From Kofleriaceae bacterium (lineage in GTDB: Bacteria > Myxococcota_A > Polyangia > Haliangiales > Haliangiaceae), in NCBI GenBank assembly GCA_046597055.1, contig JBKJLC010000105.1:1-29356 (forward strand): a DNA stretch of 29,356 bases, given 5' to 3'. Below the pieces are notes generated by a model. That model searched no databases and was not told where the DNA came from. It was given only the letters and a program-made list of their open reading frames with translations. Shown here piece after piece: positions 5,642 through 27,931 of this stretch. The position numbers were made by a program, and so were the translations under genes. Position 1 is the stretch's first letter; each line of letters begins with the position of its first letter.

Positions 5642-5950
5642 ATGGCCAAGCTCGGGTTCTTCTCGCTCATCGCGGCGTTCGTGGGCACGCTCGCCATCGT
5701 CGGAGTGACGTCCCAGGACGCCTCCGCGGCCCGGCCGTGTGCTCGCAAGAAGTTCGAGAGCACGCTGGTGAAGGCGGCGTGCCAGAAGGGCGGGCAGGAC
5801 GAGGCCAAGAAGGTGATGAAGGCGTACCTGAAGGAGGCGAAGAAGAAGAACGCCTCGCTCGCCTGCGCCACCTGCCACAGCAAGGTCGGCGGCGACTACC
5901 CGCTCAAGCCCGACGGCCAGGCCAAGTACAAGTCCAACGGCGGGAAATAG
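5642..5950 (+). CDS. Small secreted, Lys-rich monoheme c-type cytochrome
   Basis: SD AGGAG before ATG 5642; signal peptide ending ASA-A; single CATCH (CxxCH) motif; Met in VMKAY as possible distal ligand; two extra Cys. Confidence 0.7.
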   Translation: MAKLGFFSLIAAFVGTLAIVGVTSQDASAARPCARKKFESTLVKAACQKGGQDEAKKVMKAYLKEAKKKNASLACATCHSKVGGDYPLKPDGQAKYKSNGGK

Positions 5951-6031: not shown

Positions 6032-6196
6032 GCTAGCAGCGAGCGAGGAGCCTCGGATGCGAGGCGACGGTGGGGCCCGACGAGAACCGGTATCCCTGAG
6101 CGCAGCGCGAAGCGCGGAGTCGAAGGGGTGCGCCTGGTCGTGACGAAGTCGGGAGGACCGGCAACGACGCCGGCGAGGCCCGCCCTCGCTGCTAGC
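6032..6196 (+). repeat. Structured intergenic repeat, copy A (MITE/REPIN-like long hairpin)
   Basis: Perfect 12-bp terminal inverted repeat GCTAGCAGCGAG / CTCGCTGCTAGC with CTAG at both ends; homologous to the reverse complement of 16957-17088. Confidence 0.85.
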
Positions 6197-7036
6197 TCAG
6201 GCGTTGCACTTGGACTTGTTCTTGGCAGCAGCCTTGAGGTCCTTGTCCTTGGCCTCGGCCTTCTTGAGGAGCGTCGACTTCGGGTGCTTCTGCTTGAGGA
6301 CGCCGAGGTAGGCGCGCGCCTCGGCGCAGTTTTTCAGGCGCTCGGCCGCCTCGGCGGCGCGGAACAGGGCGTCGTCGGCGAGCGAGCTGGTGGCGAACTT
6401 GTCGAACACCTTCTGGTACTCGCGGATCGCGAGCTCCCAGTCCGACTGCTGGAAGTAGGTCTCGCCGCGGAAGTACTGGGCGTCGTCGGCGCGGTCGTGA
6501 GTCGGGAAGCCGACCGCGAGCTTCTTGAAGCCCTCGCGCGCCTCGTCCCACTTCTTGAGGCCGAACGAGGCGGTGGCCGCGGTCCAGATCTCGTCGGGGT
6601 TGCCGCTGCCCGGGGCCCCGGCGGTGCCGCCGCGGCCCTCGAGCGCGAGCAGGCGCTGCTCGAGCCCGGCCAGGCGCTCGTCGTTGCTCGCCTTGTAGCG
6701 ATCGAGGTCGGCCTTGATCTCGTCGAGCATGTTCTTGGCGGCCGAGACCAGGCCGGTCGAGACCCGGATGTCGTTGCGCAGCGCCTCGAGGTCGGCCCCG
6801 ATGTCGGCGCTGTTGCGCTTGAGCAGCTTGGTCGCCTCGTCGAGCACGCGCTTGAGCTCGTCGACCTTGACGGTCAGGTCGGCCTCCTTCTTGGAGACGC
6901 GCTCCTCGAGCGAGGTGACGTCCTTGCGCAGGGACTTGCCCTCGCTCTTGGTGGTCGCCCAGAAGCAGCCGGTCGCGCCGCTGGCGAGCACGGCGACGAT
7001 GCCGGCCGATGACATCAACGTGAAGCGTGACTTCAT
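6197..7036 (-). CDS. cpoB: Tol-Pal system protein CpoB/YbgF (coiled coil + TPR), lipoprotein form
   Basis: Directly downstream of pal; SD GAAGGAG before ATG 7036; lipobox-like ATGC; coiled coil then TPRs (ADDAQYFRGETYF, LADDALFRAAEA). Confidence 0.85.
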   Translation of the reverse strand: MKSRFTLMSSAGIVAVLASGATGCFWATTKSEGKSLRKDVTSLEERVSKKEADLTVKVDELKRVLDEATKLLKRNSADIGADLEALRNDIRVSTGLVSAAKNMLDEIKADLDRYKASNDERLAGLEQRLLALEGRGGTAGAPGSGNPDEIWTAATASFGLKKWDEAREGFKKLAVGFPTHDRADDAQYFRGETYFQQSDWELAIREYQKVFDKFATSSLADDALFRAAEAAERLKNCAEARAYLGVLKQKHPKSTLLKKAEAKDKDLKAAAKNKSKCNA

Positions 7037-16213: not shown

Positions 16214-16960
16214 ATGGTTTTTCGACTCACTTCGCGACGTTTGGTGACCCCCGCCGCGGCGGCGCTCGTGCTCGGCTGCGGCCTGGCCCAGGCCTCGGCC
16301 CAGGCCGCGCTCGACGATGACGACGACACCGAGGATGCGACCCCGACCTCCGCGGTCGAGGTCGCTGCCCCCCAGGCGACCCACATCGGGGTCGGGCTCC
16401 GGCTGCGCAACGTGCGCATTCCGGAGGGGCTCATCGAGGTGTTCGTCGGGGACGTCCCCGGCGGTGTCTCGAGCTTCGGCATCGGCGGCGAGCTGTCGCG
16501 CCGGCGCGGCGACTTCGAGGTCCAGTTCGGCCTCGAGTACGAGAAGCTGACCGTCACGCCCGGCCCCTGGGTCGAGAAGGGCAAACCAGTGATGGGCAGC
16601 AGCGTCGACGACGTCCGCGACGACGGCTTCGGCTGGATCACCGCCGAGCTGTCGTTCCTCTATCACACGCCGATCATCGACCAGGTGTCGGTGCGCTACG
16701 GCGGCGGCGCCGGCATCGGCATCCTGTTCGGCGACGTGCGTCGGACCGACCAGATCTGTCTCACCAACTCGCTCGATTCGTGCCGGGACGACGCGGGCGG
16801 CGAGAACCAGGACGAGCCGTACGACGTGCCGCCGGTGATGCTGGTGGTCAACGCGATCATCGGCGTGCAGATCCGTCCGACCGAGGAGATCTTCATCAAC
16901 ATCGAGGGCGGCCTGCGCACGCTGCCATTCTTTGGCGCGACCGCCGGCTACTACTTCTAG
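16214..16960 (+). CDS. Predicted small outer-membrane beta-barrel protein
   Basis: Signal peptide, acidic linker, amphipathic strands (VGLRLR, FGIGGEL, VQFGLEY, IIGVQIR, INIEGG) and a C-terminal aromatic beta-signal (AGYYF). Confidence 0.65.
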   Translation: MVFRLTSRRLVTPAAAALVLGCGLAQASAQAALDDDDDTEDATPTSAVEVAAPQATHIGVGLRLRNVRIPEGLIEVFVGDVPGGVSSFGIGGELSRRRGDFEVQFGLEYEKLTVTPGPWVEKGKPVMGSSVDDVRDDGFGWITAELSFLYHTPIIDQVSVRYGGGAGIGILFGDVRRTDQICLTNSLDSCRDDAGGENQDEPYDVPPVMLVVNAIIGVQIRPTEEIFINIEGGLRTLPFFGATAGYYF

Positions 16961-17088
16961 CGGAACGGGCTGCGGGCCCGGTCTGCTTCGTTGAGCGGTC
17001 CCCCCCACTTCGTCACGACCAGACGGTCGCTCCTCGTGGGGCCCCACCACTCGCCTCGCATCCCGGGCTCCTCGCCTCGTTCCGCAAG
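16957..17088 (-). repeat. Structured intergenic repeat, copy B (MITE/REPIN-like long hairpin)
   Basis: Terminal IR CTAGCGGAACG / CGTTCCGCAAG (10/11); its reverse complement shares GCGAGGAGCC, GGATGCGAGGCGA, GGTGGGGCCC, CTGGTCGTGACGAAGT and CAACGA with 6032-6196. Confidence 0.85.
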
Positions 17089-17118: not shown

Positions 17119-19023
17119 CTACCGGAGGCGGCGGATGTCGCCAACCCGGAGCGTCACCTTCACGGCATCGAAGTATTCGGCCAGCGGGATCGAGTACTTG
17201 CGCGAGGTCCCGGTCAGGTCCTTCCAGGCTTGCGGCGCGATCTCGCGGTGCGCAGCCAGGTAGGCGCGGAGCTTGGCCTCGAGCGCGGCGAGCACGCCAG
17301 CGTCGACGTAGAGGTCGGGCTTGATCTTGGCGAGCACGCGCGCGGCGAGCAGGTTGTCGAGCGCGGGCTTGACCTCGGCGTCGGGCCGTCCGACCGCGGC
17401 AGCGACCTCGCGCGGGCGCGGGGGCTCGAGCGCCCAGGCGTGAAACCGGGCGGCCAGGTCGGCCTCGACCGGCGACAGGGTCGCGCGGGGCGCGGTGGTC
17501 GGCCGGCGCAGGTGCTCGCCGTCCTGGATCAGCTCGCCGCGTCGGACCAGGTCGGCGGCGAGCGCGTCGAACGCGCGGGCGGGGAGCGCGGTCGACAGCT
17601 GCTGGCGGGCCTCCTCGCGCGGGAGCTCGCGCGGCGGCTGGGCACGGGCAGCGGTGTCGACCAGGCGGGTCAGCCCGCGCTCGAGCGCGGCGATCGCGTC
17701 AGCGTGCAGGTAGACCGCGCCGTCGCCGGTGCCGGCGCGGAGCAGCGCACCCTCGGCGATCAGCGCGTCGAGCATCGGGGCCACCTCGGCCGGCGGCAGG
17801 CCGACCCGGCGCCCGAGCTCGGCCGCGGTCGGCGCGGCGGCGTGGGCGGCCTTGACCTCGAGCGCGACCCGGTCGCGCGCGCGCGCGCTGGCGAACCGGG
17901 CGACCACCGCGGCGTGATCGGCGCGGGCCCGCGGTGCGTGGACGCGGACGACCTCGCCACCGCCGAGGGTGGTGCCGTGATCGGCCAGCGGCTGGAAGCC
18001 GCGCACGATGAAGCGATCGCCGGGCAGCGCGGCCAGCGGGGTCGCGCGGTCGACCCGGAGCTGCGCGAACGCCTCGGCGCCAGGGGCGAGCGACGAGGCG
18101 CCGACCAGCGCCAGGGTCGCCATCACCTGGGTCGCGCCGTGGTGGAGCAGGACCTTGCTCCGCGCCGGCAGCGGCCCGCGGGCGGCGGCGACGTGGCGAA
18201 ACCGGACGTCGAGCAGGTGGGCCGGCTCGAGGGCGTCGGGATGACCGAGCACGTCACCGCGCTCGAGCTCGTCGACCGCGACCCCGGCCAGGTTGACCGC
18301 GCAGCGCTGGCCGGCGCGGGCCGCCTCGACCGCGGCGCCGTGGACCTGGAGCGTGCGGACCCGGGTCGCCTGTCGCCGCGGCCACACCACCAGCTCGTCG
18401 CCGACCCGGATCCGCCCGCTCGCGATCGTGCCGGTGACCACGGTGCCGAAACCGCGCAGCGAGAACACGCGATCGATCGGCAGCCGCAGCACGCCGGTGT
18501 CCGGCCGCGGCGGCAGCCGGCTGACCGCCTCGGTGATCCGTGCGCGCAGCTCATCGAGGCCGGCCCCGGTCTTCGCTGACACCGCGACCCGCGGCGCGTT
18601 GGCGAGGAAGCTGCCCGCGAGGAAGCCGGCCAGCTCGGCGTCGACCATCGCCAGCCACTCGGCGTCGACCAGGTCGGACTTGGTCAGCACGACCAGGCCG
18701 TCGCGCACGCCGAGCAGGTGGCAGACGTCGAGGTGCTCGCGGGTCTGCGGCATCACGCCCTCGTCGGCGGCCACCACCAGCAGCACCAGGTCGAGCCCGG
18801 TGGCGCCGGCGACCATCGACTTGATGAACCGCTCGTGGCCGGGCACGTCGATCACCGCGAGCCGGTGGCCGCCGAGATCGACGTGGGCGAAGCCGAGCTC
18901 GGTGGTGATCCCGCGCTGCTTCTCGATCGCGAGCCGGTCGGTGTCGATGCCGGTGAGCGCGTGGACCAGCGCCGTCTTGCCGTGATCGATGTGGCCGGCG
19001 GTGCCGAGGACCAGCGCGTCCAT
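17119..19023 (-). CDS. selB: Selenocysteine-specific translation elongation factor
   Basis: From ATG 19023: [64 protein letters not shown]-terminal winged helix [21 protein letters not shown]. Confidence 0.96.
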
Positions 19024-26651: not shown

Positions 26652-26735
<84 letters not shown>

Positions 26736-26836
26736 AAGGCTGACAACCGAATAGCTCGATCGTCGTTTCCCGTCCCGACCCTCATCCTGCGAGGGTCGGT
26801 GGCATGAAGGTGCATGGTCGCCCACGATCTCCGTCT

Positions 26837-26926
<90 letters not shown>

Positions 26927-26964
26927 CAAGGTTGGCTCACTAGTTAGATTTGGTGTGTTGTCAG

Positions 26965-27037
<73 letters not shown>

Positions 27038-27041
27038 CTAC

Positions 27042-27503
27042 ATGTCCGATCACGATCTGATGGCGTTGGCACTCGAAGAGGCACGTCTCGCCGGCCTGGC
27101 TGGCGATGTTCCGGTGGGCGCAGTCGTCATCGATGCCGACGGCGCGGTGATCGGTCGTGGTCACAATCGACGCGAAGTTGCGGGTGACCCAACCGCTCAC
27201 GCCGAGATCGAAGCGCTCCGCGATGCGGCGCGCGCGATCGGACACTGGCGCGTGGAGGCCACCTTGGTCGTCACGCAGGAACCATGTCCGATGTGTGCCG
27301 GCGCGCTCGTCAACGCGCGTGTTCGGCGGCTCGTGTATGGATGCGCCAACCCCAAGGCGGGCGCGGTCCATACGCTGTTCCAGTTGTGCTCGGATCCGCG
27401 CCTCAACCACCGGGTCGAGGTCGTCGCCGGCGTTCGCGCCGACGAGTGCGCCGCGGAGCTTCGGGCGTTCTTCGCGGCCTTACGCCGCGGCGGACAGAGT
27501 TAG
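27042..27503 (+). CDS. tadA: tRNA adenosine(34) deaminase
   Basis: VPVGAV, DPTAHAE, EPCPMC, NPKAGA, RLNH and FF..LR motifs. Confidence 0.96.
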   Translation: MSDHDLMALALEEARLAGLAGDVPVGAVVIDADGAVIGRGHNRREVAGDPTAHAEIEALRDAARAIGHWRVEATLVVTQEPCPMCAGALVNARVRRLVYGCANPKAGAVHTLFQLCSDPRLNHRVEVVAGVRADECAAELRAFFAALRRGGQS

Positions 27504-27510
27504 ATTTCAC

Positions 27511-27593
<83 letters not shown>

Positions 27594-27618
27594 CAAGCTG
27601 TGAACGTTCTGCGAACTT

Positions 27619-27704
<86 letters not shown>

Positions 27705-27761
27705 CTGCTCGGATCACGCTGATTTTTCTGGTACCAACGATCGAGCTATCGACCACGTTTA

Positions 27762-27847
<86 letters not shown>

Positions 27848-27931
27848 TTTTTTGAGCCGAGAGGCTATAGTGCCGGCGGCCCACGGGTCGCCGGCGCTGC
27901 TGTTTTCGGCGGGCTCGCGGGGCGCCGCCGC

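Follow-up and report, generated by a model that had tools for sequence, protein, structure and literature searches.

What kind of element is the long hairpin that stands twice at gene ends in this Kofleriaceae contig, and how might it have come to be there? The window (the whole stretch of 29,356 nucleotides analyzed) holds one copy at 6032..6196 on the plus strand and another at 16957..17088 on the minus strand, in each case the folded strand. Copy 1 (60.9 bits with R1, a covariance model of the family) has terminal arms at 6033-6043 / 6185-6195, with CTAG at both ends, a second stem at 6050-6055 / 6174-6179, an inner stem at 6076-6081 / 6148-6153, and loop motifs at 6044, 6056, 6140, and 6162. 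Copy 2 (118.3 bits with R1) has its arms at 17084-17078 / 16967-16961, the second stem at 17068-17063 / 16981-16976, the inner stem at 17041-17036 / 17008-17003, and an apical hairpin, GGAGC-N4-loop-N4'-GTGAC, at 17033-17012, the part in common with ERIC. All the stem and loop motifs that the initial annotation had quoted for the two copies are present at their positions.

The same annotation had described both copies as rods, which holds for the best fold of copy 2 only. The minus strand of copy 2 folds into one rod at -86 kcal/mol (z -7.2), a value that none of 200 shuffles equaled, and its opposite strand folds more weakly (-69 kcal/mol). The best fold of copy 1 is not a rod (z -3.06): its second stem is paired end to end in only one of 668 suboptimal folds, 2.3 kcal/mol above the best, and a nested palindrome of about 40 nt (about 6085-6127, plus strand), absent from the annotation and itself a separate abundant repeat, takes the place of the apical loop on its 5' side.

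The family in the home genome

The home genome (G000; 8.38 Mb, 72% G+C, by its gene content likely that of a myxobacterium) was searched with BLAST and nhmmer and then with R1, which was built from 36 copies in nine genomes. The model finds 24 copies there, 21 of them full-length, as the idea of a multicopy family had predicted; an early match at C105:53487, which belongs to the nested palindrome family only, was left out. Among 25 genomes of the taxonomic family, R1 finds 1-33 copies in 17 (range over all 25, 0-33), and in the phylum it has matches in nine of 151 genomes.

Stems covary and loops are fixed, as had been proposed from two copies. In the R1 alignment 87.4% of cells are paired and 24 of 36 pairs have changed on both sides, with a covariation score of 0.353 against 0.113 for shuffled and 0.04-0.085 for slid partners, controls that ignore relatedness; the loop words are invariant, and at two positions tandem G-A mismatches alternate with Watson-Crick pairs. 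The preference for a single strand is likewise borne out: the same strand folds better in all 21 full copies. Arms are short (8-11 bp) and differ by subfamily, although the copies are 89-95% alike, and CTAG is not supported as the boundary or target of the family: copy 2 has CTAG on one side and CTTG on the other, and CTAG is at both ends in only two of the 21 full copies.

Arm subfamilies recur at unrelated sites, which led to rejection of the idea that the arms are mainly copied from the tail of each adjoining gene; one shared site (C177 versus L013) does show a gene tail mirrored in the element. The nested palindrome occupies the same spot in nine element copies with different arms, so either modules have been exchanged between copies or this spot has been hit repeatedly. 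Its own family has 190 regular-expression matches in the home genome, and copies of it flank a GIY-YIG gene (C191:6300-7300; L043). At C140:1-180 and C91:13553-13678, two different element alleles, each with its own far flank, follow one and the same gene tail, which points either to a branch in the assembly or to recombination at the element.

Comparison with Rfam leaves the element outside the curated families, with no match to it at gathering score in the window and none at E ≤ 5 in eight loci from relatives. A likeness to SRP RNA was dropped for want of Rfam support, and a scan of 41 element translations against NCBIfam gave sub-cut-off matches only. The window also carries five tRNA genes and a small SRP RNA at 26652-27855, which are ordinary.

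Stop codons and empty sites

Copy 1 directly abuts the TGA stop (6197-6199) of a YbgF/CpoB-like TPR gene on the minus strand (6197..7015; TIGR02795, below cut-off), and on its other side is a small convergent gene (5642..5950, plus strand) with no assigned family. The end of copy 2 overlaps the TAG stop (16958-16960) of a plus-strand gene (16244..16960); its convergent neighbor selB (17119..19023, minus strand) is incidental, copy 2 facing the stop of the other gene. Both copies do therefore abut a stop codon between convergent genes, as first described, but the convergent setting is not a family rule: a convergent gene lies on the other side of 16 of 23 copies in the home genome, and behind the folded strand of the other seven there is none. 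The actual rule is one of polarity: the folded strand has its 3' end toward the stop of an antisense gene. By the analysis's own gene calls, and with C140 (at a contig end, with no called gene) left out, this holds for 22 of the 23 scorable copies: in 20 the antisense stop is within 21 nt of the element's 3' end, where random placement would give 0.06-0.24 copies, and in two it is 55-56 nt away, by way of a partial duplicate of the element's 3' part. In the remaining copy the distance is 639 nt. The same polarity is seen in 13 of 17 copies in relatives and in 14 of 17 copies in genome G191. It gives no support to the suggestion of a plain structured 3'-UTR RNA of the adjoining gene, to which the selected strand runs antisense.

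The insertions are lineage-specific. Orthologous sites, a check proposed at the outset, are empty for both window copies: the element is absent from all 14 congeners with the gene at the copy 1 site, and all 14 orthologs at the copy 2 site lack it and have the same terminal residues and a TGA stop. The stop is TAG at 16 of 22 copies in the home genome, against 21% of genes genome-wide. At two genes, where the home genome has a TAG joined directly to the element, all orthologs have TGA (14/14 and 16/16); four other genes are mixed and one further gene has a single ortholog, so a change from TGA to TAG upon insertion is suggestive only.

Junctions in the home genome have duplications of 0-4 nt, variable and apparently of no fixed length; no close empty allele was recovered, and sequencing reads gave no joint across the element. 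In contig C262 the original end of the gene turns up again on the far side of the element, and in C239 and C267 duplicates of the element's 3' part adjoin the gene. Some copies in relatives have ends that are conserved yet non-complementary.

A core in common with ERIC and repeats of other phyla

Copy 2 has the core of an ERIC-type superfamily as defined here, a single rod in which an apical GAGC/GTGA hairpin is accompanied by an AGGCG/CAACG loop at mirror spacing. In E. coli, the rpsB-tsf spacer shares this apical hairpin and the second loop, spaced almost identically. Searching a species collection for the apical-hairpin pattern gave at least 120 loci; the 80 titled records among the matches listed come from Desulfobacterota, Nitrospirota, Pseudomonadota, Bacteroidota, Chlorobiaceae, Bacillota, Planctomycetota, Acidobacteriota, Campylobacterota, Verrucomicrobiota, and Rokubacteria (phylum names assigned by the analyst from record titles), and named Kofleriaceae and Polyangiaceae records among them bear the same core. 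The pan-bacterial loci among the matches listed fold as the same rod. The second loop word, absent from the search pattern, is upstream in 103 of 117 listed loci, and 83 of these 103 have it at mirror spacing. The motif strand of these loci is enriched in G-T over A-C (131 vs 59) and in G-A over T-C (101 vs 30) oppositions. A scan of viral contigs gave 17 matches, only one of them a rod (ERIC-like), and a metagenome scan gave one match.

Core model R2 was built from 47 of 103 alignable scan matches, with records named as Enterobacterales or myxobacteria excluded and some unnamed deltaproteobacterial records kept. Its alignment is 79.5% paired, with a covariation score of 0.558 against 0.179 for shuffled and 0.11-0.20 for slid partners (controls that again ignore relatedness). 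R2 scores copy 2 at 38.9 bits, the E. coli rpsB-tsf ERIC at 39.1, the ERIC-like viral-contig copy at 48.1, and the next best at 15.9. It finds 11 matches in the home genome, all family members, and matches in 16 of 101 genomes of the home phylum; five distant genomes have 2, 15, 48, 30, and 20 copies. Copy 1 is missed because of the nested palindrome.

Is the element then an ERIC? The full-length model R1 gives ERIC copies only 14-19 bits, within noise, and the link rests on R2, whose seed pattern was chosen after the resemblance had been noticed; together these point to shared architecture and likely homology, the element not being ERIC proper. The ERIC-PCR primers, as found in the accessible part of the printed literature, have 10-11 mismatches of 22 with the window copies. 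ERIC/IRU/RU-1 (127 bp) is alike in the apical hairpin GGAGC-N4-loop-N4'-GTGA, the second internal loop, size, and rod fold, but the element has an extra outer loop and lacks the constant TA ends and short terminal inverted repeats (TIRs) that the accessible text of PMC2229807 gives for ERIC: its arms vary, and a single subfamily has TA at both ends. Antisense-stop polarity is also much stricter in the element than in ERIC.

In E. coli K-12 there are 14 R2 matches, of which eight fit an ERIC-PCR primer with 1-6 mismatches; three of these eight face an antisense stop within 8 nt. The other six (L237, L239, L240, L242, L245, L246) form a second class, which we take to be RSA, with the same apical hairpin and not ERIC by primer. 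ERIC itself is described, in the accessible text of PMC10969869, from Enterobacteriaceae and Vibrionaceae only, and the portions available of that paper and of PMC2229807 name no motif besides the TIRs. What appears to be new here is a core with invariant loops that is pan-bacterial, extending beyond enterobacteria and vibrios.

The pan-bacterial copies have ordinary core genes as neighbors. Just 3' of the element there is an antisense stop in 43 of 76 loci, and just 5' of it there is a sense stop in 18 of 77, compared with 110 of 3136 control positions. In two Pseudomonas species the element lies between nrdA and nrdB at equal distance with nearly all stems changed, one element site is common to G000, G003, and G009, and stems are very diverse within G191. 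Ribonucleotide reductase loci and GAPDH genes (L117, L181, L166, L177, L164, L321; L127, L150, L183) are recurrent host sites across phyla. Most copies in a Listeria genome (G190; L336-L355) abut an intrinsic terminator hairpin and have a conserved 5' tail of about 24 nt; in L355 the core has the reverse orientation with respect to both. Tandem core arrays occur at L139 (Rouxiella, five copies) and in G189.

Other known repeats invite comparison. Rickettsia palindromic elements (RPE) and Coxiella QMITE1/2 are presumably of a similar size class. One pan-bacterial copy has a weak RPE5 peptide match (E 0.0033, below cut-off). QMITE2 is noted to overlap stop codons in the accessible text of PMC5896051. 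Geobacter metallireducens Gmet_R1001-R1024, in the available part of PMC2700814, are intergenic multicopy rods of about 113 nt with similar loop words and a different apical stem, a likeness seen by eye; that part calls them “predicted short RNA elements” and proposes neither mobility nor a link to ERIC. In the literature searched, mostly openly accessible papers, none unites these repeats by a shared core. The description of the element as new holds as far as Rfam is concerned, and is weakened by the core shared with ERIC and by relatives that carry this core inside ordinary MITE ends.

How the element may spread

Two relatives have such ends. Genome G018 has an IS1182 (L369:1273-3091; 327 bits, above cut-off) in 13 CTAG-bounded copies, and some of its elements end in the right TIR of this resident IS1182 plus CTAG, with the same outer loop inside; others have a different IS-like end. 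The stop codon of the IS1182 transposase is the TAG of the terminal CTAG. In genome G005 the core is enclosed by long TIRs and 3-bp flanks in near-identical 180-bp MITEs, at least 11 of them, whose TIR has no matching IS end at 23 transposase loci; identical core-only matches in this genome, considered as an autonomous carrier, proved to be these MITEs of about 180 bp. A sister of the G005 repeat is found in the home genome (C168:1478-1638, two in C269, and C182, C121, C193, and C95), about 160 bp long, in which long TIRs and 3-bp flanks accompany a related but shortened core. It serves as an internal control: it lies at stops in both orientations (four sense, two antisense).

The explanation that best accommodates these observations, at a probability of about one half (0.52), is that the element is a non-coding hairpin with an ERIC-type core, placed with its 3' end at an antisense stop, that spreads as a folded single strand recognized by its loops, with its enzyme encoded elsewhere. 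The loops, not the arms, would be the heritable identity of the element, and arms would be captured or swapped between elements. Long-armed forms would be moved by DDE transposases, and the short-armed polar form by an end-anchored single-strand route, through DNA or reverse-transcribed RNA, in which the enzyme would recognize the folded strand by its loops and join it at gene ends. The several unrelated shells around one core, the contrast in polarity, the strand-specific wobble, and the variable junctions all fit such a module. Several observations count against it: no mobilizing enzyme was found beside any copy (transposases, reverse transcriptases, or HUH proteins are 0 of 89 and 0 of 40 neighboring ORFs, and none of 23 reverse transcriptase loci has an adjacent copy; one phage integrase is near a G191 copy), the nine copies in which the nested palindrome has displaced half of the apical motif still occur at many sites, a G-rich strand would fold better by composition alone, and the covariation controls are blind to relatedness.

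A somewhat unlikely alternative, yet a serious one, is a classical MITE that has eroded: it would stem from a CTAG-targeting MITE of the IS1182 type and be moved by a DDE transposase, with its stop-codon position and polarity due to post-insertion host selection, if one orientation harms mRNA, and its stems paired by template switching. Arm-to-arm switching could indeed pair stems without selection; orientation-dependent effects of ERIC on mRNA decay have been reported (PMC2229807, accessible text); the TAG enrichment is what a TA or CTAG target would give, and the TGA-to-TAG change is clean at only two well-sampled genes; and with the outer loop inside IS1182-matching CTAG ends in G018, as with the textbook MITEs carrying the core in G005, a plain DDE origin is at hand. 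Like a classical MITE, the element is multicopy and non-coding, with empty orthologous sites, and the G018 MITEs share its core, outer loop, CTAG ends in some copies, and insertion near stop codons. The home genome fits less well: the long IS-like TIR is lacking, no TIR of a resident IS from the three transposase families searched matches (one IS4-family gene has no ends like the element's), and a search of the 94%-complete assembly gave no DUF772, no DDE_3, and no IS1182. Short arms varying among otherwise similar copies, the apparent lack of a fixed duplication, the rarity of CTAG at both ends, and the indifference to orientation of the long-TIR MITE in the same genome also weigh against erosion, which leaves one core in unrelated TIR shells unexplained.

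An improbable though still serious reading is a host-useful structured RNA or single-stranded DNA site at gene ends, acting in cis in termination, stability, or protein binding, rarely copied and kept by selection. Core genes as neighbors, the Pseudomonas nrdA/nrdB copies, the site common to three genomes, and the diverse stems of G191 would suit it, but the empty orthologous sites, copy numbers from zero to 33 among relatives, and a selected strand antisense to the adjoining gene, with no convergent gene behind it in seven of 23 copies, would not. The REPIN-like link raised initially is very unlikely: there are eight RAYT-like Y1_Tnp genes in the home genome, the hairpin is long, and one subfamily begins with GTAG, but most subfamilies lack GTAG, and no copy or half-copy is near the eight genes (no copy within 1.5 kb of any locus), which have a different repeat. 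Those at C285, C119, C146, C48, and C259 have their own conserved upstream palindrome. Least credible of all would be dispersed copies of a retron msd hairpin: the one retron-type reverse transcriptase of the home genome (C157:46600-48328; L034) has a structured upstream non-coding region, but neither the family HMM nor the core model matches it, which largely refutes the idea for this retron.

To return to the loop-recognized single strand, a broader form of it is possible but doubtful: that ERIC, the second E. coli class, and many species-specific hairpin repeats from at least 10 phyla form a superfamily around one structured module, moving without terminal repeats via a single-stranded intermediate that is attached where a gene or transcript ends (the stop codon here, the terminator in Listeria) and repeatedly capturing IS ends to become ordinary MITEs. 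Apart from this, the findings show MITEs as modular, with one interior and several transposase ends. A core with invariant loops and freely varying stems, shared from myxobacteria to Bacillota, implies one conserved recognition partner or activity, and it provides a search model and targets for loop mutants in asking how ERIC-type repeats move and gather at gene ends. If the single superfamily is real, the enzyme or binding protein of the module can now be sought.
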